Shown here: one piece after another, positions 29,438 to 40,359 of the stretch
How positions within the stretch are numbered: the first letter of the stretch is position 1
Layout: every line of letters begins with the position of its first letter
Source of the DNA: an uncultured Planctomycetales bacterium
Lineage (GTDB): Bacteria > 4484-113 > JAFGCY01
Length of the DNA stretch: 64,000 bases
Assembly (NCBI GenBank): GCA_964512635.1
Contig: CAZEJB010000004.1
Location: forward strand, 51,822-115,821
Direction of reading: 5' to 3'
The notes under the pieces: generated by a model
What the model was told of the DNA's origin: nothing
Databases searched by the model: none
What the model saw: the letters and a program-made list of their open reading frames with translations, nothing else
Position numbers and translations under genes: made by a program

Positions 29438-30481
29438 CTAGGATTCAAACAGACTGGGTGTTTCCTCGCCATTACTCAGATCGCGGGGTGCGGGAAGGCC
29501 GAAGTATTCATACGCCCGGTAGGTCACCACTCTTCCGCGGGGTGTCTTCTGCAGCAGCCCAAGCTTCAGCAGATAGGGCTCATGAACTTCCGCCAGCACA
29601 TCGCGCTCCTCATGGAAGACCGCGGCCAGGGTGTCGAGCCCCACAGGTCCGCCGCCGAAGCGGTCCATAATGGCTTTCAGGATCTCCCGGTCCATGCGAT
29701 CCAGTCCCAGTGCGCTGATTCCGAGTGCCCCCAGCCCGCTGACGCAGGTATTCAGGTCGATGTTTTCGCTGCCATTGACCTGGGCGAAGTCGCGCATGCG
29801 TCGAAGCAGTCTGAGCGCAATGCGCGGTGTACCCCGGCTATGTTCGGCGAGATGCTGGCGGGCCTCATCGTCTATGCTCATGCCAAGAGCCGGGGCAGCG
29901 CGCAAGATGATGCGAGAGAGCTCTTCCGGAGTATAGAACTCCAGGTGGAAGAGCACGCCAAAACGGTCGCGCAGGGGTGCGCTGAGCAGGCCGGAGCGCG
30001 TTGTGGCTCCCAGCAGCGTAAAGGGCTCCAGGGGCAGGCTGATAGTCCGCGCTCCCGGCCCGGTGCCGGTCACGATATCGACCCGGAAGTCTTCCATCGC
30101 GCTGTAGAGAGTTTCTTCCACTCCACGGGGCAGCCGGTGGATCTCGTCGATGAACAGAGTCTGACCGGGAGCCAGTCCGCTGAGAATAGCCACCAGATCG
30201 CCGGGGCGCTCCAGCAGGGGCCCGGCGCTGACAGCCAGACTGGTATCCATTTCGGCTGAAATCAGATGGGCCAGCGTCGTCTTACCCAGACCTGGAGGAC
30301 CGCTGAATAGAATGTGCTCCAGCGCTTCTCCGCGCATTCGGGCCGCCGCGATCATGATTCGCAGGTTGCTGACAAGTCCTTCCTGGCCGATAAAGTCGTC
30401 AAGACGCCGCGGGCGCAAAGAAACAAACTCGGCATCCTCGCGGTGGGCCTGGTATCGCAGAACCTGATCAGCGCTGTCCAA
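29438..30481 (-). CDS. ruvB: Holliday junction branch-migration ATPase RuvB
   Basis: Walker A GPPGLGKTT, Walker B LFIDEIHRL, sensor/arginine motifs and a RuvB winged-helix C-terminus. Confidence 0.9.
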   Translation of the reverse strand: MDSADQVLRYQAHREDAEFVSLRPRRLDDFIGQEGLVSNLRIMIAAARMRGEALEHILFSGPPGLGKTTLAHLISAEMDTSLAVSAGPLLERPGDLVAILSGLAPGQTLFIDEIHRLPRGVEETLYSAMEDFRVDIVTGTGPGARTISLPLEPFTLLGATTRSGLLSAPLRDRFGVLFHLEFYTPEELSRIILRAAPALGMSIDDEARQHLAEHSRGTPRIALRLLRRMRDFAQVNGSENIDLNTCVSGLGALGISALGLDRMDREILKAIMDRFGGGPVGLDTLAAVFHEERDVLAEVHEPYLLKLGLLQKTPRGRVVTYRAYEYFGLPAPRDLSNGEETPSLFES

Positions 30482-31245: not shown

Positions 31246-32583
31246 ATGCCGCTGAGGGGTTGGCGCTGGTATGCCTGGCTGATGGCTGGACGCCATGGTG
31301 GTCGCGAGGCCGCCCGCAGATTCCATGAACTGGAGCGCAGCCAGTGGCTGGACGCGCAGGAACTCAGGCGGTGCTGTGAAGATAAGCTGCGCGATCAGCT
31401 GGTCTTTGCGGCCGCGCATGTACCGCATTATGGCCATCTGGGCCCCGAACCGAACCTGCATGCCTTTCCTGTGCTGACCCGGACCACGCTGCAAAGGAAC
31501 CTCCGAAGCCTCACGTCTCCTCTGGCGACAGCCCGGCGCTCCTGGCGGCTGAACTCCAGCGGATCCAGCGGTGTTGTGGTCAGTGTATTGCGGGACCGAC
31601 AAACTCAAAGCTGGGCGACAGCCTGTGCCTGGCGCGGCGACTGCTGGGGAGCAGATCTCCAGCCAGAGATGCGACAAGTCAGCCTGCTGAGCAATATCGG
31701 GAACATTGTAGGAAGCCGACGCGCACTCAGCCCGGCGGGAGCCTGGCTCCACAACCGCTTCGTACTTGACGGCATGCATCTGAGTGTCGATCGAACTCGT
31801 ATACTGCTGAAACAGATCAGTGAGCTTCAGCCTGAGGTGCTATCCGGGTATCCCAGCGTCCTGTTGGTTCTGGCTCGGATTGGCCAGCTTTGTGGATTCT
31901 CCGCTCCGAAGCTCAAAAAAGTCCTTCCAACGGCCGAGACCTGCAGCCGCGAGGAGGCTCAGGAATTGGAGCTGTTTTTTGGCGCACCGGTCCTGCAGCG
32001 CTACGGCTCTCATGAATTCAGCGCCATGGCCCATCAGTGCGAACACGGTTCATGGCACTGGCATAGCGAGGTACTTAAGGTTGAGGTCCGTGCGCCGGAC
32101 GGTTCAATCCGGTCAGAAGGCAGAGGCAGCCTGCTTTGCACTTCTCTGGCAAACCAGTCCTTCCCGCTGGTGCGCTATGAGATCGGTGATGAGGTCGATC
32201 TAACTCCTGTCGCCTGTCCCTGCGGTCGAGGACTGCCTACGTTTTCTACAATTGAGGGACGAACCAAGGACTATGTCTATTGCCCTGATGGCAGCTGGAT
32301 CAGCGCACATGCCTTTCTTGCAGTCCTAAGACGTCTGCCGCTGCTGCAATTCCAGCTGATCCAGGAACAGCCGGATATGTTGCACCTGCTGCTAGTAGCA
32401 GAAGGGGTAGTTCCGCAGCCACAACTTGATTGGATCGCAGCAACTTTCTCAGAGATTCATGATGGCAGATTAGGACTCAGGATCCTGCAGGTCGAAGAAC
32501 TGGAACGAAGTCCTGGGGGCAAGCTGCTGCGCATGATCAGCCGAATACCTGAGAATCTGCTTTCCGGAGGAACACCGCAGTAG
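31246..32583 (+). CDS. PaaK/CapK/F390-synthetase-family adenylate-forming enzyme, array paralog 1
   Basis: VPHYGHLG (cf. PaaK VPMYRRKF), P-loop-like SSGSSGVVVSV, and PLVRYEIGDEVDLTPVACPCGRGLPTFSTIEGR. ATG at 31246 gives MPLRGWRWYAWL matching the other paralogs; track TTG at 31222. Confidence 0.7.
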   Translation: MPLRGWRWYAWLMAGRHGGREAARRFHELERSQWLDAQELRRCCEDKLRDQLVFAAAHVPHYGHLGPEPNLHAFPVLTRTTLQRNLRSLTSPLATARRSWRLNSSGSSGVVVSVLRDRQTQSWATACAWRGDCWGADLQPEMRQVSLLSNIGNIVGSRRALSPAGAWLHNRFVLDGMHLSVDRTRILLKQISELQPEVLSGYPSVLLVLARIGQLCGFSAPKLKKVLPTAETCSREEAQELELFFGAPVLQRYGSHEFSAMAHQCEHGSWHWHSEVLKVEVRAPDGSIRSEGRGSLLCTSLANQSFPLVRYEIGDEVDLTPVACPCGRGLPTFSTIEGRTKDYVYCPDGSWISAHAFLAVLRRLPLLQFQLIQEQPDMLHLLLVAEGVVPQPQLDWIAATFSEIHDGRLGLRILQVEELERSPGGKLLRMISRIPENLLSGGTPQ

Positions 32584-32640
32584 CAGCCTTCGAACCAGCG
32601 GGCCGCCCTTCGCAATTGATGTCTTGCAGCTTAGGCGATA

Positions 32641-33984
32641 ATGGGGCGGGGCAAAATGGGATTTCGCACCCTCATTTGGAAATGGAAAGCCGGCCTGGAC
32701 GGCAACCCGGTCTTTTCACGCTATGACAGCCTGATGCAAAGCCAGTGGTTTGTGCCATCAGCATTGCGTGAAATGACCGAAGATGCACTGCACAAGGTTC
32801 TGGCACATGCCGCAAAGACAGTGCCGTATTACAAACGGCGCGGCGCCGAGCCCGCATCTATTGACTCCTTCGGCGTGCTCAGCCGTGACCAGTTGATCAA
32901 TGGCTATGCAAATCTGCAATCAAACCAGCCGGGACCCATGCCGCATTGGCCAACCAGCTCCAGCGGTTCCTCCGGCCAGCCGGTTACAGTTGTACTAGAT
33001 AAGGAATGCAACAGCTGGAGGACAGCCAGCGCCTGGCGCGGCGATACTTTCGGCACCGGATTGAGCCCCGATGCAAGGCAGCTTGCCATCTGGGGTAACC
33101 CGATGGAAGTTAAGCTCACACGACGCCTCTTCCAGCGCTTGCTGAACTACTATCACAATCGATTCATCGTTGATGGCTTCACTATCACCCCTGAATCGGT
33201 CCGTGAGATTCATCAGCGCATGCACCAGTTGCGACCAAAAATCCTGTACGGCTATCCCGCGTCGCTGCATGGCTTTGTGTTGAGCGCTCGCGAGCAGAAC
33301 CTTGAACCAATTCCTGTCTGGCGCTTGATGACTACCGGTGAGCAGCTCAATGAGACGCAAAAGGAAGCCATCGGCAATTACTTCGGAGTTAAGGTCTGCG
33401 AGCGCTACGGCAGCCGCGAGTTTGGCTCTATGGCACACCAGTGCGAATATGGCACCTGGCACATCCACCAGGAGCACCTGCACTTTGAGGTGCGTTTACC
33501 CGATGGGCGGATCAGCGACAGCGGCACCGGAGACCTGCTGGTTACCAGTCTGCACAATTACACCATGCCGCTGATCCGTTACGACATCGGCGATATGGCT
33601 GACCTGACACCCGCCGAATGCCAATGCGGTCGAGGCCTGCGCACATTCACCAGTCTGCTTGGACGGCCCAGCGAGTTTATCTATACGCCCAGCGGCGTCT
33701 GGATCAATGCCAACCACTATCACGTGCTGCTGCGCGATGAGCCGGTGCGGCAGTTCCGATTCATCCAGGACACTCCCGGCGAGCTGCGTATGCTGATCGT
33801 CCCGCGGGACGAGATGACGATGGAACGGCTTGAACTGCTGCGTCGTCAAGGCGAAGTGATCGCAAAAAATGAACTCAAGCTGCATCTGGAAGTCGTTGAC
33901 CAGATTGATCCGCTGCCGAACGGTAAAAGCCCCGGTGTGCTGAATCTGCTGCCAAGGCCGGCTCTGCCGGGACTTCTGAGCTAA
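32641..33984 (+). CDS. PaaK/CapK/F390-synthetase-family adenylate-forming enzyme, array paralog 2
   Basis: TVPYYKRRG, SSGSSGQPVTVV, PLIRYDIGDMADLTPAECQCGRGLRTFTSLLGR. Stop TAA at 33982-33984 overlaps the stop of paralog 3. Confidence 0.7.
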   Translation: MGRGKMGFRTLIWKWKAGLDGNPVFSRYDSLMQSQWFVPSALREMTEDALHKVLAHAAKTVPYYKRRGAEPASIDSFGVLSRDQLINGYANLQSNQPGPMPHWPTSSSGSSGQPVTVVLDKECNSWRTASAWRGDTFGTGLSPDARQLAIWGNPMEVKLTRRLFQRLLNYYHNRFIVDGFTITPESVREIHQRMHQLRPKILYGYPASLHGFVLSAREQNLEPIPVWRLMTTGEQLNETQKEAIGNYFGVKVCERYGSREFGSMAHQCEYGTWHIHQEHLHFEVRLPDGRISDSGTGDLLVTSLHNYTMPLIRYDIGDMADLTPAECQCGRGLRTFTSLLGRPSEFIYTPSGVWINANHYHVLLRDEPVRQFRFIQDTPGELRMLIVPRDEMTMERLELLRRQGEVIAKNELKLHLEVVDQIDPLPNGKSPGVLNLLPRPALPGLLS

Positions 33985-35294
33985 CGCCTGCTGACCAGGT
34001 TAATCACGTGTGGATTCTTGCCGCTGGGAAGGGGTTCAATGCTCTCTACCAGTCGAAGGTCCACCCTAATCTGCTCTCCATGCAGGCTGGCAAAATCGGC
34101 CAGCAGGTTGCGACGCATGTCTGAGGTCAGCTCTTGCAGGCCCTGCAGTTGCAGCTCGAGGTGATCCGGGGCATCCTGGATGATCCTGAACCTCTCCAGC
34201 TTGAGCTGACGCAGGAAGTTCGTATAGGCCAGTGAGCTGATCAGCCGGCCGTCCGGGATGCTGATGTGTTCCGCGACCCGGCCTTCAATGCTGCTGAAAG
34301 TCGGCAGTCCGCGTCCGCAGTTGCAAGGCACTGGCGTCAGGTCGACGATATCGCCGATGTCGTAGCGCAGCAGGGGCATTGCGCGGTTACTCAGGGTGGT
34401 GCACAACAGGTGGCCCTTCCCGGAGCCATTGATGGCACCGTCGGACGACTGGACCTCAACCACAAAATTCTCACTATGCCAGTGCCAGGTACCCAGCTCG
34501 CACTGGTGAGCCATAGTGCCGATCTCACGGCTGCCGTAGCGCCCAAGTACAGGGCAGCCAAAGAAGTCCTGGAGCTGCACCTGCGTTTGTGGGCTGCAAT
34601 GCTCAGCGGTGGGAATCACTTTCTCCACAATTGGCGCAGCCAGACCGAGTCTCTCGCTGATACTGGCAAAGGCACTCAGCGCTGAGACATAGCCGTAAAT
34701 CAAAGCGGGCTTAAGCTGCCTGATACGAGCGTGGACGTGACGTACGCTTTCCTCATCCATTACAAAACAGTTGAGCAGGTAGCGGTTACGGTAAAAGGCG
34801 GACAGGGCCTCCAGCCATGGTGGACGCGGCGCGAGATCCCGTGAGTTCCCCCACAGGGCCACTTGCCGCGCACTGGACTGCAGGTTTGTACCCCAGGGGT
34901 CGGCGCGCAGAGCGGCTGCATGCCGCCATGCTGCGCTTTCCATGTCATAGACCACTGTCACGGGCTCGCCGGTGCTGCCAGAAGAACTGGCGCGGTGCAG
35001 ATGAGTGTGGCTGGCCGCGGCCGGCTGCAGGCTGCTGCCCAGCCGGCCGAGTTCCTGTCGTCCCAGCACCGGCAAGTCTGCCAGGCTTAGCTGGCTTTGG
35101 CGGTCGGCAAGGCTGTTGTAAAAGGGGACTTCGCGTGCCGCGAACTCAAGGATCTGTGACAATCGCTCGCGCTGATACTGCTGCAGCAGGGGGCTTTCCC
35201 ACCATTGCGATTCAACCAGACGGTCGTAACATGCCGCAGCAAGCCGCCCGGCCTCACCACCGAACACCTGCCACGCCAGCCACCGCCAGTCCAT
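33981..35294 (-). CDS. PaaK/CapK/F390-synthetase-family adenylate-forming enzyme, array paralog 3
   Basis: MDWRWLAWQ N-terminus, EVPFYNSLA, SSGSTGEPVTVV, PLLRYDIGDIVDLTPVPCNCGRGLPTFSSIEGR. Confidence 0.7.
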   Translation of the reverse strand: MDWRWLAWQVFGGEAGRLAAACYDRLVESQWWESPLLQQYQRERLSQILEFAAREVPFYNSLADRQSQLSLADLPVLGRQELGRLGSSLQPAAASHTHLHRASSSGSTGEPVTVVYDMESAAWRHAAALRADPWGTNLQSSARQVALWGNSRDLAPRPPWLEALSAFYRNRYLLNCFVMDEESVRHVHARIRQLKPALIYGYVSALSAFASISERLGLAAPIVEKVIPTAEHCSPQTQVQLQDFFGCPVLGRYGSREIGTMAHQCELGTWHWHSENFVVEVQSSDGAINGSGKGHLLCTTLSNRAMPLLRYDIGDIVDLTPVPCNCGRGLPTFSSIEGRVAEHISIPDGRLISSLAYTNFLRQLKLERFRIIQDAPDHLELQLQGLQELTSDMRRNLLADFASLHGEQIRVDLRLVESIEPLPSGKNPHVINLVSRR

Positions 35295-35341
35295 ACCAGT
35301 TCAATATAGCCGTAACGGAAGGCCGCGGCAAACCATGACTA

Positions 35342-36679
35342 TCAACCAGCATTGACCAGGCGACTGTGCAGACGGTTTACTACATAGGGGCTTTTGCCGC
35401 TGGGCAGGACAGGAATAGTCTCTACCTGCTGCATCTCGAAGCTGAAGTCTGCGCCCAGAACCTGTCTGAAGTGCTCGCGGATCGGTTCCAGCTCCGAGGC
35501 CAGCAGCTCACGCTCCGATTGCATCAGGAAGGTCATCCGGCCTTCGTCCTCGATGATGAACCGATACTTCACCAGGGGCAGATGCTGAAAGAAGCTGTTG
35601 AATGTGCACAGGTTGATCCAGCGTCCGTCGGAACACTTGATCAAGTCTGAGACCCTCCCTTCCATGCTGCAAAAAGTCTGCAGGCCGCGGCCGCATGAGC
35701 AGTCCACGGGCGTCAGATCCACGATGTCGCCGATTTCATATCGAATCAGCGGCATCGCCCGGCTGATCAGGCTTGTACAAAGCAGTCGCCCGCGGCCCTC
35801 AGTAGAGATGCTCCCATCTTCGCGCTGGACCTCCAGAAGAATCAGTTCACTGCTCAGGTGCCAGGTTTTGTGTTCGCAGCGACTGGCGATCAGTCCCATT
35901 TCATTAGATGCATAGCGGTCTGCAACAGAGCAACCAAAGAACTCCTCCATCCGGGAGCTGTCTTCGAGGCTGCATTGTTCGCCGCAAGGCACGACCTTTT
36001 CAAAACGCCAGGGCGAAATCCCGGCCCGGCGTCCAAAGTGCATGAATGCCTGTATAGCTGTGGTTGGTCCATAGAGCAACCGCGATCTGGTCCAGGCAAA
36101 ATGCTTGTTGAGCTCAGTGGCTCGTGCCTCGTTCATTTCGAAGCAGTTAAAGATGTAGCGATTGAAGAGGCGGTCAAAGAGCTTTGCCTTGATGCCCCTG
36201 ACTTTTCCTGAATCGCGCGCGCTGGCCCAAAGCCCTGCCTGTGGATCTGTTGGACGCAGGCTGGTCCCCCACAGGTCGCCGCGCAGGAGAGCGGCCCGTC
36301 GCAAGGCCTGCGCTGCAGCATCGACATAGACCGTGACCGGTTCGCCAGTGGAGCCCCCGGTGTTCCAGCGCGTGATTCGCCCTTCGTTCTGGTGCGGCGC
36401 CAGCAGCTCTTCAGCATGCCTGCGCAGCATTGCGCGTGTGATGACGGGGAAAGCTTCGAGTTTTGGGCTCAGATAGAGATTTCTGTAGTACGGAACAGCG
36501 CTCACCGCAAAATGCAATGTCTCTTCCAGGCGCTGTGCCCGTAGTTGTTCCAGTTGGCCCGGTGTCAACCACTGGCTTTGCAGCAACTGGTCGTAAGCGA
36601 GCGCGGTCGACCGCCAGATTTCGGGGTCATATATCTGCCAGGCCAGCCAGCGCCAGTCCACAGCTGAATCATAGCGCAA
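35342..36679 (-). CDS. PaaK/CapK/F390-synthetase-family adenylate-forming enzyme, array paralog 4
   Basis: VDWRWLAWQ, AVPYYRNLY, TGGSTGEPVTVY, PLIRYEIGDIVDLTPVDCSCGRGLQTFCSMEGR. Confidence 0.7.
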   Translation of the reverse strand: MRYDSAVDWRWLAWQIYDPEIWRSTALAYDQLLQSQWLTPGQLEQLRAQRLEETLHFAVSAVPYYRNLYLSPKLEAFPVITRAMLRRHAEELLAPHQNEGRITRWNTGGSTGEPVTVYVDAAAQALRRAALLRGDLWGTSLRPTDPQAGLWASARDSGKVRGIKAKLFDRLFNRYIFNCFEMNEARATELNKHFAWTRSRLLYGPTTAIQAFMHFGRRAGISPWRFEKVVPCGEQCSLEDSSRMEEFFGCSVADRYASNEMGLIASRCEHKTWHLSSELILLEVQREDGSISTEGRGRLLCTSLISRAMPLIRYEIGDIVDLTPVDCSCGRGLQTFCSMEGRVSDLIKCSDGRWINLCTFNSFFQHLPLVKYRFIIEDEGRMTFLMQSERELLASELEPIREHFRQVLGADFSFEMQQVETIPVLPSGKSPYVVNRLHSRLVNAG

Positions 36680-36691
36680 CTGTGATAGGGA

Positions 36692-37972
36692 CTATTGGAC
36701 GCTGCTGTTGTCGCGCTTCAGGAGATTCACGATGTGCGGGCTCTTGCCGCTGACCAATGGAGGGATTTCTTCGAGCTGCTCAAAGTCGACCCGGATCTGC
36801 CCTTGGAACAGTCGCTCAAAGCTCTCCAGTAGCTGGGCCCTGATCGAGCCATCAATCTGCCCTTGATACTCGAACTGCAGTGTGATGTGGTCAATGCTGT
36901 CCTGCACGATTCTGAACTTGCTGAACGGAGCAAGACGCAGGAAGCGTGTGAAGGCCATGCTGGAAATCCAGCGGCCGTCGGGACAGTAGACATGCTCGGC
37001 TACACGGCCTTCAATACTGCGGAATGTGGGCAGGCCGCGGCCGCAGGGGCAGTCGACGCCGTCGAGGTCCAGCAGGTCGCGGATGTCATAACGTATCGTC
37101 GGCATCAGACGATTGCTGAGGCTGGTACAAAGCAGGCTTCCCTGGCCGCTCTCGCTGATGCTGCCGTCAGGATGCTGAACCTCCAGGTAGAGGTGCTCGC
37201 AGTTCACATGCCAGTTGCCGTATTCACACTGGTGTCCCATCGGGCCCATCTCGCGTGACGCGTAACGTTCCAGTACTGCCGAGCCCTTGAAGAAATCCTG
37301 GATGTCGGCGCGGGCCTCTGGCGTGCACTGCTCGGCCGTTGGCATGACTTTTTCGATGTAAGGCGGGCGGAGGCCAAGTTCCCGGGCAAAGCGGATGTAG
37401 CCGACAAGCGAAGAAACATAGCCATAGAGAAACCGCGGTCGCCGGCGCAGAAGTTCGCGATGGATTCGCTGCGCCTGCTGTTGATCGATGATCCAGCAAT
37501 GGATGATCCAGCGGTTGTAAAGCCAGTCGTAAGCCCGGCTGCGAAGACTGGCACTCTGGCGTGAATCTCGCGGGTTGCCCCAGAGGCTCACGGTCGGGTC
37601 GGTCGGCCCGAAGCCTGCACCCCAGCTGTCGCTTCGATACAACGCGGCCCTTCGCCAGGCGAAGGTCTGTTCATCAAAATGGATGGTCGCCGGCTCACCT
37701 GTGCTTCCGCTGCTGGTGCCTTCGTAGCGCTTGCCAAGCGGCGGCGTATCAGAGTGCAGTCTGCGGGCCTCACGGGTAATCAGCTGTCGCGACAGGACCG
37801 GGAATTCTCGGATGTCGGCGGAAAGCCCCAGCTCACGGTAATAAGGCACAGTGTTAGCTGCGTGCTCAACAACGCCCCGCAATTGTTCGCGCTGATAGCG
37901 CTGCAGCTCCTCTGTGGGCCACCACTGGCTCTGCAAACACCAGTCGTAGCGCTGCGCAATGTGGCGGGCCAC
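36692..37972 (-). CDS. PaaK/CapK/F390-synthetase-family adenylate-forming enzyme, array paralog 5
   Basis: Shortest N-terminus (lacks the WRWLAWQ motif). TVPYYRELG, SSGSTGEPATIH, PTIRYDIRDLLDLDGVDCPCGRGLPTFRSIEGR. Confidence 0.7.
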   Translation of the reverse strand: MARHIAQRYDWCLQSQWWPTEELQRYQREQLRGVVEHAANTVPYYRELGLSADIREFPVLSRQLITREARRLHSDTPPLGKRYEGTSSGSTGEPATIHFDEQTFAWRRAALYRSDSWGAGFGPTDPTVSLWGNPRDSRQSASLRSRAYDWLYNRWIIHCWIIDQQQAQRIHRELLRRRPRFLYGYVSSLVGYIRFARELGLRPPYIEKVMPTAEQCTPEARADIQDFFKGSAVLERYASREMGPMGHQCEYGNWHVNCEHLYLEVQHPDGSISESGQGSLLCTSLSNRLMPTIRYDIRDLLDLDGVDCPCGRGLPTFRSIEGRVAEHVYCPDGRWISSMAFTRFLRLAPFSKFRIVQDSIDHITLQFEYQGQIDGSIRAQLLESFERLFQGQIRVDFEQLEEIPPLVSGKSPHIVNLLKRDNSSVQ

Positions 37973-38050
37973 ATCGCCGCCGTAGATTTGCCAGGCTGTC
38001 CAGCGCCAGTCCAGACTGCGAATGATAGCGCAGTGCAGGCGACAGACTGC

Positions 38051-39412
38051 TTATGGATTGGCGGCCGAGGGCACAGGCAATCCGGCACTTTGACGGTGCA
38101 GCATGTTTATGACGATTGGGTCTTTTCCGTTGGATAAGGGTTCGATTCGTTCCACGACCTGAATTCGGAGTTTCATGCTGCTTCCTATATGCTTGAGAAA
38201 GAGTGCTTCGACCTGCAGGGCTAAGTCCTCCGGGACCGGCTCATGACCTTGCACCTGTATCGTAACCAGGGACTCAGTCTCCTGAATAACCCGATATTTG
38301 CTAAAGGCCATGCGCCGGAGTGGCATGATGAAGGACCAGGGACTCAGCCAGTGGCCATCTGACGTGAAGAGCTGCTCGGAGATTCGCCCGTCGAGGCCAG
38401 TCATCGTCGGCAGGCCGCGTCCACAGGGGCAGTGCACCGGCGTCAGGTCAACCATGTCGCCGATCTCGTATCGAATGAGCGGCATGGCACGGTTGTCCAG
38501 ACTTGTCGCCAGCAGGCTGCCGTATCCCGATCTGGCGATTGCGCCGTCCTGGCGCTTTACCTCCAGCAGCAGGTTCTCGCTGTGCAAATGCCAGGTGCCA
38601 TGCTCGCAGCGGTGGGCAATGGGGCCCAGTTCAGCGGCACCGTAGCGGTCGACAACGAGGCAACCGAAGAACGCTCGAAGTTCTTCCTTCGCCGGCTCCA
38701 GGCAGGTTTCGGATGTCACGATCACCTTGCTCATTGGCGGCGGATATGCTCCCTCGGCCTTCGCAAAGCGGGCGTAAGCTTCAACCACGGAGGCATAGCC
38801 GACCAGCATGCGAGGTCGCAGTTTCACAAGCAGAGTATTCAGTTCCTTTGCCCGGACCGGGTCAAGATCCACGCGGTTGAACACGAATCGGTTGTAGACA
38901 AAGTCATACAGCCTCGCCCGCAGATTCTGCTGGCTGCCGGCGTCACGCTCGCTGACCCACAACACGGCCTGTCGATCCGTCGGACGCAGATCCGTTCCCC
39001 ACGCGTCCCCGCGGAGCATTGCTGCCCGCCGCCAGGCCTGGGTGAGCGAATCGACCCTTGTGCTGACGGGCTCGCCGGAGGACCCGGCGCTTTGCCAGTG
39101 ATAGATTTTGGCGGATGGTTGCGGATCTGCCAGATGGCGGGCATAGTCGGGCCGGAAGCCCTGACGGTCAACAACTGGAAAATCCTCCAGGCGAGGAGCC
39201 AAGCCGAGCTCTCGATAGAAGGGCACTGTCTCAAGGGCATACTTCAGCAGGCGCTCAAGTTTCTGATTCTGAAGATCCAGCAGACGACCTGGCGAATACC
39301 GCTGGCTTTCAAGCAACAAGTCATAGCAAGCAGCCGCCTGTCGCCAGGTTTCGCCTCCATGCATCTGCCAGGCCAGCCATCTCCAATCCACAGCGCAGCA
39401 ATGATACGCCAC
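38051..39412 (-). CDS. PaaK/CapK/F390-synthetase-family adenylate-forming enzyme, array paralog 6
   Basis: VDWRWLAWQ, TVPFYRELG, SAGSSGEPVSTR, PLIRYEIGDMVDLTPVHCPCGRGLPTMTGLDGR. Confidence 0.7.
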   Translation of the reverse strand: MAYHCCAVDWRWLAWQMHGGETWRQAAACYDLLLESQRYSPGRLLDLQNQKLERLLKYALETVPFYRELGLAPRLEDFPVVDRQGFRPDYARHLADPQPSAKIYHWQSAGSSGEPVSTRVDSLTQAWRRAAMLRGDAWGTDLRPTDRQAVLWVSERDAGSQQNLRARLYDFVYNRFVFNRVDLDPVRAKELNTLLVKLRPRMLVGYASVVEAYARFAKAEGAYPPPMSKVIVTSETCLEPAKEELRAFFGCLVVDRYGAAELGPIAHRCEHGTWHLHSENLLLEVKRQDGAIARSGYGSLLATSLDNRAMPLIRYEIGDMVDLTPVHCPCGRGLPTMTGLDGRISEQLFTSDGHWLSPWSFIMPLRRMAFSKYRVIQETESLVTIQVQGHEPVPEDLALQVEALFLKHIGSSMKLRIQVVERIEPLSNGKDPIVINMLHRQSAGLPVPSAANP

Positions 39413-39471
39413 TCAATACAATCCTGAATCTGCGGCAGACGCAGAATGTATCCGTGCGCTATAACTCAGAT

Positions 39472-40359
39472 ATGGCGGAACGCATCCTCCTCATCGACTC
39501 CACCGGGCTGATCTTCCGGGCCTACTGGACGATCAAACCCCTTTCGGCGCCGGACGGCACCCCCGTCCATGCGGTGTTTGGCATGCTGCGAATCATGATG
39601 AAGGTCTTCAAGGACCGTCAGGCCACCGCCAGCGCGATGATCTTCGACGCCGGTATGGATACCTTCCGGCGCGAGATGTATGCCGACTACAAGGCTAACC
39701 GGCCGGCACCGCCGGACGATCTGCGGCCCCAGTTCGGTCTTTCCATTGAGGCCTGCCGCTGCACGGGCGCACCGGTCTTTGCCGAGAAGGGCTTTGAGGC
39801 CGACGACATTATTGCTACCCTGCGCGACCGGGCTGTGGAACGCGGGATGGCCGTGACGATAGTTACCGGCGACCGCGATATCCTGCAGCTCCTGGCCCCC
39901 AATGTTGAAGTGCTGATCATGAAGGGTGGCGGCGAATTTGACCCATACACTCCCGAACGCTTTGTCGAGGAGTATGGCTTCCCGGTCGACCGCTTTGTGG
40001 ACTACAAGGCGCTGATGGGCGACACCAGCGACAACATCCCGGGCCTGCCCGGCGTCGGTCCGAAGACGGCGCAAAAGCTGATAGAGACCTACGGCAAGCT
40101 TGAGCACATCTATGCCAACCTGGAGTTCGTTAAGCCCGACAAGCTGCGCGGTCTGCTGAAAGAGAATCAGGAAAAGGTCTTCATGTACCGCGAGCTATGC
40201 ACGCTGCACCACACTGTGCCGGTTGAGTACCATTTCGACCAGCGTGTGATGCCGGACTTCGGCTCAGATGCCCTGGCCGAGAAGCTGACTGGCATGGGAT
40301 TTACCCGCATCGGCGAAGACGCGAAGAAGCTGGGGGATCTGCAGCCTAACACGTCCTGA
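39472..40359 (+). CDS. stand-alone 5'-3' exonuclease (Pol I N-terminal/FEN-like domain)
   Basis: MAERILLIDSTGLIFRAYWTIKP, then GFEADD, TGDRDILQL and GIPGVGPKTA (H3TH) motifs. ~295 aa with no polymerase domain. The track ORF start at 39115 is an artefactual upstream extension. Confidence 0.8.
   Translation: MAERILLIDSTGLIFRAYWTIKPLSAPDGTPVHAVFGMLRIMMKVFKDRQATASAMIFDAGMDTFRREMYADYKANRPAPPDDLRPQFGLSIEACRCTGAPVFAEKGFEADDIIATLRDRAVERGMAVTIVTGDRDILQLLAPNVEVLIMKGGGEFDPYTPERFVEEYGFPVDRFVDYKALMGDTSDNIPGLPGVGPKTAQKLIETYGKLEHIYANLEFVKPDKLRGLLKENQEKVFMYRELCTLHHTVPVEYHFDQRVMPDFGSDALAEKLTGMGFTRIGEDAKKLGDLQPNTS

Follow-up and report, generated by a model that had tools for sequence, protein, structure and literature searches.

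PaaK of Escherichia coli (b1398) and PaaK1/2 of Burkholderia cenocepacia (PDB 2Y27, 2Y4N, 2Y4O) are two-domain ANL enzymes that carry the motifs A3, A5, A7, A8 and A10, and enzymes of the PaaK family are obligate dimers (PMC8388817). NatL2 and AjiA1 (PDB 6SIW, 6SIX, 6SIY, 6TM4, 6WUQ), PaaK-type ester-forming enzymes of benzoxazole biosynthesis, and ClxA (PDB 9S3L, 9S45), a 401-aa amide/ester ligase for aminohydroxybenzoate, make their products without CoA, and in NatL2 and ClxA the catalytic Lys comes from the partner subunit (for NatL2, PMC7204872). Here we describe a 64,000-nt stretch of DNA from an uncultured Planctomycetales bacterium (GenBank assembly GCA_964512635.1, contig CAZEJB010000004.1, positions 51,822 to 115,821; hereafter the window) in which the interval 31246-39412 contains six ligase paralogs of 437-446 aa, taken from the list of open reading frames (ORFs) and labeled W1 and W2 on the + strand and W3-W6 on the - strand. 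A preliminary description of these genes had singled out a Trp-rich N-terminal extension, a GEP in place of GKP in the P-loop and a Cys-x-Cys knuckle as the signatures of a distinct clade. The observation was confirmed and its interpretation partly supported. We consider it probable, at roughly three chances in four, that the region is a tandem array of six copies, diverged from one another, of a CapK-like ANL ligase with the PaaK fold and that the shared motifs are the normal architecture of that family.

Family, fold and motif census

The six proteins are 34-47% identical in pairwise comparisons. By sequence profile, the best solved relatives are AjiA1, NatL2, ClxA, BT_0428 of Bacteroides thetaiotaomicron (PDB 4R1L, 4R1M, 4RVN, 4RVO) and PaaK1/2, and the top Foldseek matches of an AlphaFold2 monomer model of W3 (predicted local distance difference test score, pLDDT, of 92.6 with a 67-sequence alignment) were NatL2, AjiA1, PaaK1/2, BT_0428 and ClxA (probability 1.00, E 1e-26 to 1e-22). 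The fold of the W proteins is thus the two-domain ANL fold, in its PaaK-like branch. NatL2/AjiA1, the best PDB matches by sequence as well as by fold, have the four zinc ligands at the same positions as W1-W6, a CxCG after the A7 hinge, an A10 Lys near the C-terminus and, as in most of the W copies, an acidic P-loop residue (GEP or GDP). They are, however, only 22-24% identical to the W proteins. NatL2 has CxCGW where the W proteins have CxCGRGLP, lacks the N-terminal extension of ~30 aa (the match begins at 'DW', the equivalent of SQW), carries Thr239 where most of the family, including W2, W3 and W5 (RYGSRE), has an Arg, and, unlike the W genes, is located in an aromatic natural-product cluster. 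BT_0428 (GNP P-loop, ECQEQNGMH, CPCGRTHLR) and ClxA (GEP P-loop, SCDEGHLH, CSCGNDRP) both lack the N-terminal extension and the P-loop Lys; BT_0428 is nearer to E. coli PaaK (E 1e-111) than to the W proteins (E 6e-7).

The family to which the six copies belong is the CapK-like one. The W proteins match a Sorangium 'CapK' and Phycisphaerales proteins at E 1e-40 to 1e-53 over >90% of their length with the same set of motifs, and database homologs are often annotated as CapK or 'phenylacetate--CoA ligase family'. Typical CapK-like members are 26-33% identical to the W proteins and share their length, N-terminal extension, (S/T)QW, GS(T/S)GEP, C-H-C-C, CxCGRGLP and SGK, with the difference that they occur singly or in pairs and not as six genes together among housekeeping genes. 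Precomputed matches to PF27533 (CapK_C) exist for database proteins identical to W2 (P0012), W3 (P0001), W4 (P0009) and W5 (P0006), and PF27533 was flagged, weakly, in 1/6 of the orthologs at the related locus described below (L001). A search of an older Pfam release gave no match with W1-W6; that release predates the CapK_C model (PF27533) and does not contain it, so this null result is no sign of novelty.

The database name of the orthologs ('phenylacetate--CoA ligase family protein') and the PaaK fold would be compatible with ordinary phenylacetate-CoA or aryl-CoA ligases of aromatic acid catabolism, but the six proteins reach only 31-39 bits with the PaaK model (TIGR02155; cut-off 646) and 40-64 bits with the haloarchaeal PaaK model (cut-off 700), W3 is ~20% identical to PaaK1, and there are no paa genes within the window. 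This makes such a catabolic identity extremely unlikely. All NCBIfam matches were partial and below threshold, those to the FlxY and DdaG models included, and membership was also rejected for coenzyme F390 synthetase FtsA (TIGR03335; <=27 bits, cut-off 459), the F390-related family (TIGR02304; 36-53 bits, cut-off 252), BagE/FevW (NF041217; 65-81 bits, cut-off 800) and the DVU_1553 family (NF045666; 78-101 bits, cut-off 300). The weak similarity of BagE/FevW, the DVU_1553 family, FlxY, DdaG and the F390 synthetase-related proteins to the W proteins lies over the A5-A8 core.

An exhaustive HMMER search of 50%-identity clusters with a profile of the six paralogs retrieved 8,140 representatives with E<=1e-30; at the looser threshold of E<=1e-3 there were 28,625. 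For a census of the motifs, 118 unbiased single-domain representatives were aligned with the six copies and E. coli PaaK (MG1655 record); counts out of 118 refer to this alignment. The Gly and Arg that follow the CxC are present in 116 and 114 of the 118 representatives, respectively, and the Gln and Trp of (S/T)QW in 108/118 and 98/118. A regular-expression search of 146 newly retrieved representatives of all lengths found CxCGR in 133. E. coli PaaK (SSGTTGKPT) has neither the His ligand nor the CxC, for which it reads 'LPGTARTMRR', and has no N-terminal extension; of the four residues of the putative zinc site it keeps only the first, the Cys in 'MEC'. PaaK1/2 of B. cenocepacia similarly have GKP and lack the His ligand and the CxC. 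The claim that these features set the six proteins apart from canonical proteobacterial PaaK was therefore borne out. What the motifs delimit against that enzyme is a very large assemblage of CapK-like and NatL2-like proteins, and not these six genes. The result named in the preliminary description as refuting clade specificity, the presence of these features throughout ordinary relatives, was thus obtained for CapK-like sequences.

The putative Cys3His site and the P-loop

The preliminary description had reported an RY.IGD hinge followed by CxCGRGL(P/R/Q)T(F/M), and had suggested that the Cys pair might be metal-binding or structural. The knuckle is indeed invariant across W1-W6, but the hinge before it reads RYDIRD in W5; the absence of the knuckle from E. 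coli PaaK, noted in that description, holds for the MG1655 sequence and extends to PaaK1/2. A second pair of residues, the Cys and His of 'QCExGxWH', which that description had overlooked, is likewise invariant in the six copies. Together the four (C265, H271, C324 and C326 in W3 numbering) are conserved in 118/118 representatives, far in excess of chance, and C-H-C-C was found in 274/282 full-length domains among all matches; these counts contradict a restriction of the set to a small subclade. In the crystal structure of NatL2, Cys248, His254, Cys308 and Cys310 hold a tetrahedral, essential structural Zn, and NatL2 activity is abolished by EDTA and restored by Zn (PMC7204872). HMMER alignments place 'QC248PEGRMH254' of NatL2 on 'HQCExGxWH' and 'C308GC310G' on 'CxCG' (numbering re-derived by counting along the alignment). 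This residue-for-residue correspondence of all four ligands supports a metal-binding role, and by homology the Cys-x-Cys of W1-W6 is very probably one half of a Cys3His structural zinc site. Such a site would combine 'QC-x5-H' after A5 with the Cys-x-Cys, which lies in a hairpin bounded by A7 (RYxIGD) and A8 (GR), and its zinc would staple the end of the N-terminal domain well away from the active site, as it does in NatL2.

In some acyl-protein synthetases the acyl group is accepted by a Cys, and the two invariant Cys residues adjoin the A8 hinge, so the Cys-x-Cys could also be thought of as a catalytic or redox element, for example a thiol that takes up the acyl group in a covalent thioester (LuxE-like self-acylation) or a redox switch. 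The homologous Cys residues of NatL2, however, are zinc ligands >20 Å from the AMP (PMC7204872), the pair is conserved as part of a set of four with a third Cys and a His, and E. coli PaaK does without the His and both Cys residues of the CxC. We consider a catalytic or redox role highly improbable.

The P-loop (ANL motif A3) had been given as SSGS(S/T)GEP in five of the six copies, with SSGSSGVV in paralog 1. The latter is correct for W1, whereas the literal string fits W3 and W5 only; the tally over the six copies is GEP in four, GQP in W2 and GVV in W1. The Lys of the PaaK P-loop falls at the variable x of the ANL A3 consensus, (S/T)(S/T/G)G(S/T)TGxPK (PMC8388817), and the contacts of PaaK1 to the ATP phosphates come from backbone amides and from Ser94, Thr96 and Thr97 (PMC8388817). 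In the CapK-like family the P-loop reads (S/T)(S/G)GS(T/S)G-x-P, with Glu the most frequent x. This position is unconstrained among family members (E, Q, R, T, D, V, A); among the 118 representatives, Glu is commonest (E 56, Q 15, R 7, T 6, D 6) and Lys is rare. The core motifs A3, A5 (YGxxE), A7 (Asp), A8 (GR) and A10 (GK) are present in all six copies, with only W1 deviating, in the last two P-loop residues. Invariant in the six-copy alignment are G114, S115, G117, Y261, E265, D323, G346, R347, G433 and K434, in the numbering of the 453-aa W1 ORF from TTG 31222 (+8 relative to the refined ATG 31246 start). The Gly-Lys of A10 is found in 117/118 representatives. In W1-W6 the Lys is separated from the C-terminus by 11-23 residues; PaaK and NatL2 both have it in a comparable place, so the sequence does not discriminate for or against the subunit-swapped C-terminal extension by which ligases of the NatL2/ClxA type donate this Lys in trans and lock the closed state. 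With the catalytic A10 Lys invariant and the Lys/Glu difference at the variable x, GEP tells nothing about the chemistry or the nucleophile, contrary to what had been supposed of the lost Lys.

The proposal that the three motifs define a small clade of these paralogs, and that the Lys-to-Glu change in the P-loop alters the adenylation chemistry or the acceptor, draws on the GKP of canonical PaaK with its missing CxC and His ligand, and on the fact that the nearest solved GEP/GDP relatives, NatL2, AjiA1 and ClxA, are CoA-independent ester/amide ligases. Set against this, thousands of CapK-like clusters throughout the family share the motifs, and PaaK1 contacts the phosphates through backbone amides and Ser/Thr side chains. 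The census largely refutes this proposal in silico, and we regard it as very unlikely. Since the adenylation motifs are retained in every copy, the likeliest activity of each protein is the ATP-dependent conversion of a carboxylate to an acyl-AMP, followed by transfer of the acyl group to a nucleophile, and we infer catalytic competence for all of them from these sequences.

We also noted that a P-loop E, D or Q co-occurs with an Arg in A5 (RYGSRE; E110 and R256 in W3) at the position of Thr239, the phosphate-binding residue of NatL2. The A5 Arg is present in 152/195 sequences with E/D/Q in the P-loop vs 11/45 with T/V/A (counts uncorrected for shared ancestry), and NatL2, with GEP and Thr, is an exception to the pattern. 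The acidic or amide residue and the Arg may form a charge pair.

Several points weigh against reading the region as six ordinary CapK-like ligases with a structural zinc site. The authors of the NatL2 study call the zinc 'a unique feature of NatL2' in comparison with PaaK and a Bacteroides ligase (PMC7204872). BT_0428 (PDB 4R1L, 4RVN) nevertheless carries the same four residues by sequence, so that either its site is unoccupied or unmodeled or the conserved sequence is no guarantee of zinc. The paper on the ClxA structure (PDB 9S3L) makes no mention of zinc, though ClxA too carries the same four Cys/His residues, and the deposited maps of BT_0428 and ClxA may be worth re-inspecting. A literature search on AjiA1 and zinc found nothing relevant. 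W1, with GVV and without the P-loop Pro that is present in 92/118 representatives, might be non-adenylating. No polysaccharide locus is adjacent to the genes within the window, where the neighbors are housekeeping genes, and our literature search found no known substrate for any CapK-like protein; searches for CapK biochemistry returned nothing usable, the term mostly retrieving unrelated kinases.

N-termini, start codons and gene layout

The N-terminal motif (V)DWRWLAWQ had been reported in four of the six copies. It is exact in W3, W4 and W6; W5 has DWRWTAWQ, while W1 (GWRWYAWL) and W2 (GFRTLIWKW) have looser versions. The DWRWTAWQ of W5 is in frame but upstream of any ATG, GTG or TTG, with CTG (38012-38014, -) as the preceding codon, and its first canonical start, GTG 37972, would remove the motif. 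Between the W6 stop codon and the W5 motif there is no ATG, GTG or TTG, and the ortholog was called from the equivalent codon. All four DWRW-type orthologs in the second genome begin exactly one codon ahead of DWRW, indicating that the motif is the true N-terminus of the protein. The W5 start thus seems to be the CTG codon, and the ORF starts at 36679 and 39412, which give longer proteins, probably lie upstream of the real ones.

As had been noted, SQ(W/R) follows in all six copies, 20 aa after the N-terminal motif (SQ(W/R)x). In the AlphaFold2 model of W3 the extension is predicted as two helices (residues 3-11 and 13-29), and the pLDDT of 90-93 over residues 1-20 suggests that the segment packs on the body of the protein. 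The alignment to PaaK and NatL2 begins at SQW, which ~28 residues precede. The family pattern would be a two-helix extension of ~30 residues that ends in (S/T)QW: residues before the xQW (median 31) were found in 104/118 representatives, so an extension of ~30 aa is family-wide and not, as had been proposed, a signature of the six. Its Trp content differs, with 0-1 Trp typical of the family representatives vs 2-4 in W1-W6, and DWRW-type N-termini are confined to about a dozen close clusters. It is only in its Trp-rich form (M-DWRWLAWQ) that the extension is a mark of the narrow clade of 24 leaves described below.

Just ahead of the start codons of W3, W4 and W5, at a distance of 4-6 nt, is a conserved DNA element, GCGCTAT(G/C)AT(T/G)CA, that recurs at their orthologs; for W6 and its ortholog, a comparable TATCAT box is found slightly farther upstream. 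Reading frames through the element differ, indicating that it is conserved as DNA and not as peptide. There is no Shine-Dalgarno sequence at the W3-W6 starts, for which the codons are ATG, GTG, CTG and GTG in the window and TTG, TTG, ATG and GTG in L001. In form the element resembles a -10 box, here placed directly at the start of the gene, and transcripts from it would be leaderless. A single sigma-70-like match, TTGCCG-17-TATATT, was noted, with its end 9 nt ahead of the W3 ATG.

The coordinates of all features are collected in Table 1. W2 and W3 are convergent, and their stop codons overlap in CTAA (33981-33984; TAA on + and TAG on -). There is no terminator between them, and the equivalent gap in the relative is 7 nt. 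Long antisense ORFs over the W genes were discounted as artifacts of high GC content, among them a shadow ORF of 331 aa (38432-39427, +) antisense to W6. In the 5'-3' exonuclease ORF (39115-40359, +; 414 aa) the Pfam match does not start before residue 124, and the ortholog has 295 aa; the ORF is over-extended, its long 5' extension was likewise put down to high GC content, and its apparent overlap with W6 is an artifact.

Table 1. Positions in the window of the six ligase genes and their motifs, with upstream and related elements
Feature	Sequence	Position	Strand	Basis or remark
W1, ligase paralog 1, 445 aa from ATG 31246	MPLRGWRWYAWL...	31246-32583	+	orthologs Rf/P0011/P0121 begin MPLRGWRW
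W2, ligase paralog 2, 442 aa from ATG 32656	MGFRTLIWKW...	32656-33984	+	ortholog Re/P0123 begins (M/V)GFRT
W3, ligase paralog 3, 437 aa	MDWRWLAWQ...	33981-35294	-	ORF; AlphaFold2 model; Foldseek
W4, ligase paralog 4, 439 aa from GTG 36661	(M)DWRWLAWQ...	35342-36661	-	ortholog Rc begins MDWRW
W5, ligase paralog 5, 440 aa if CTG 38014 is the start	(M)DWRWTAWQ...	36692-38014	-	ortholog Rb called from codon preceding DWRW
W6, ligase paralog 6, 446 aa from GTG 39391	(M)DWRWLAWQ...	38051-39391	-	ortholog Ra begins at codon preceding DWRW
W1 N-terminal extension		31246-31350	+	equivalent to W3 segment
W2 N-terminal extension		32656-32751	+	equivalent to W3 segment
W3 N-terminal extension, residues 1-32	MDWRWLAWQ ... 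SQWW	35199-35294	-	AlphaFold2 secondary structure
W4 N-terminal extension		36566-36661	-	equivalent to W3 segment
W5 N-terminal extension		37919-38014	-	equivalent to W3 segment
W6 N-terminal extension		39296-39391	-	equivalent to W3 segment
W1 P-loop (A3)	SSGSSGVV	31555-31578	+	alignment; atypical
W2 P-loop	SSGSSGQP	32959-32982	+	alignment
W3 P-loop	SSGSTGEP	34962-34985	-	alignment
W4 P-loop	TGGSTGEP	36338-36361	-	alignment
W5 P-loop	SSGSTGEP	37691-37714	-	alignment
W6 P-loop	SAGSSGEP	39068-39091	-	alignment
W1 putative Zn site, first half (= NatL2 Cys248, His254)	C265-EHGSW-H271	32038-32058	+	alignments; 118/118 conserved
W2 putative Zn site, first half	CEYGTWH	33442-33462	+	alignment
W3 putative Zn site, first half	CELGTWH	34482-34502	-	alignment
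W4 putative Zn site, first half	CEHKTWH	35858-35878	-	alignment
W5 putative Zn site, first half	CEYGNWH	37208-37228	-	alignment
W6 putative Zn site, first half	CEHGTWH	38588-38608	-	alignment
W1 putative Zn site, second half (= NatL2 Cys308, Cys310)	CPCGRGLPTF	32215-32244	+	alignments
W2 putative Zn site, second half	CQCGRGLRTF	33619-33648	+	alignment
W3 putative Zn site, second half	CNCGRGLPTF	34296-34325	-	alignment
W4 putative Zn site, second half	CSCGRGLQTF	35672-35701	-	alignment
W5 putative Zn site, second half	CPCGRGLPTF	37022-37051	-	alignment
W6 putative Zn site, second half	CPCGRGLPTM	38402-38431	-	alignment
W1 motif A10		32515-32523	+	equivalent to W3 SGK
W2 motif A10		33919-33927	+	equivalent to W3 SGK
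W3 motif A10 (catalytic Lys426)	SGK	34017-34025	-	invariant G and K in alignment
W4 motif A10		35393-35401	-	equivalent to W3 SGK
W5 motif A10		36743-36751	-	equivalent to W3 SGK
W6 motif A10		38123-38131	-	equivalent to W3 SGK
Upstream DNA element	GCGCTAT(G/C)AT(T/G)CA	35300-35312, 36667-36677, 38021-38031	-	also L001 upstream of 7256, 8630, 10001
CapK_C/Wzx locus of P0015		L008 5401-10894; L009 5800-11293		only polysaccharide-type context seen for the narrow clade

Conservation of the array, fused ligases and possible roles

In a second genome, the metagenome-assembled genome SJ870 (GCA_020849855.1; locus L001), the array recurs with gene order and neighborhood unchanged, its six genes being one-to-one orthologs of 63-83% identity (W1 64%, W2 83%, W5 81%, W6 75%). 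Neighbor-joining places the six copies, together with their orthologs, in a single clade that holds 24 of the 151 leaves, pointing to a lineage-specific expansion older than the split of the two genomes. SJ870 was the only close relative found in a scan of GTDB species representatives, and a single relative gives no means of following the array further in time or across lineages. The closest relatives of the window's RuvB are 66-92% identical to it, and proteins from named phyla come in at 62% or below, in keeping with an unclassified lineage. The genes are flanked on one side by ruvB (29438-30481, -) and def and on the other by the 5'-3' exonuclease, an ABC-2 permease, two unknown genes and SHMT. 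The def/ruvB/exonuclease synteny is common to both genomes over at least 20 kb and is therefore uninformative about functional linkage. Members of the wider family occur in Wzx/Wzy polysaccharide loci or fused to GT2. The narrow DWRW-type clade has a more remote member, P0015, at whose locus a Wzx-type flippase (Polysacc_synt) and a gene of unknown function are enclosed by a pair of CapK_C genes.

Among the top 150 family representatives, approximately 20 are natural proteins in which one ligase unit is fused to another. These proteins, of 830-1,490 aa with two complete ligase units in tandem, are P0125, P0126, P0130, P0131, P0133-P0137, P0140-P0142, P0144, P0145, P0147, P0152, P0153, P0155, P0159, P0164 and P0176. 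In P0130, P0137, P0140, P0153 and P0164 one half is degenerate; the degenerate halves are without P-loop, zinc ligands or A10 Lys. The two halves are mostly each other's nearest relatives (mean identity 44% vs 29% between proteins), which argues for recurrent, recent tandem duplication of a homodimer, and the same process could be the source of the six-gene array. The fusions do not reveal an ancient A/B heterodimer onto which W1-W6 could be mapped, their halves being mostly recent internal duplicates.

These fusions, several with one degenerate half, bear on whether W1-W6 work as heterodimers or as a larger hetero-complex in which some copies, W1 with its GVV for example, are non-catalytic partners. 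Such an arrangement would also fit the obligate dimers of the PaaK family, the catalytic Lys that NatL2 and ClxA receive from the partner subunit, and the one-to-one retention of all six copies across two genomes. The closeness of the fusion halves, however, speaks for duplication of homodimers and not for an old A/B pair, and A5, A7, A8 and A10 are kept in every copy; we therefore consider a hetero-complex unlikely. A more speculative version, in which the six paralogs form a dedicated multi-ligase machine, seems to us rather improbable. By analogy with NatL2 and ClxA, which oligomerize hydroxy- or amino-acids, the paralogs would act as three pseudo-heterodimers or as a sequential CoA-independent ester/amide 'assembly line' that might yield a small-molecule oligomer or else a multiply amidated glycan, and the Trp-rich N-terminal helix might be a clade-specific docking or membrane-interface element.

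Returning to six diverged CapK-like ligases as the preferred reading, we infer from the old duplications, each of them kept, that the copies differ in substrates or pairing partners. The polysaccharide-locus context of the wider family and the CoA independence of the nearest enzymes argue against phenylacetate catabolism, and the role would rather be the decoration of a glycan or the formation of a small ester or amide product. What is special to the lineage is only the Trp-rich N-terminus and the conserved six-gene array. For a specialist in ANL enzymes nothing here will be surprising, and the points of interest are modest. They include the correction of an attractive but wrong inference, that a P-loop Glu in place of Lys means new chemistry. 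By sequence, the zinc site described as unique to NatL2 would be a universal hallmark of the CapK-like family (~8,000 50%-identity clusters at E<=1e-30), present in BT_0428 and ClxA as well, and its recognition helps with annotation, construct design and the reading of EDTA sensitivity. Finally, the analysis flags a conserved six-gene array of uncharacterized ligases, and any biochemical handle on the CapK-like class would be new.

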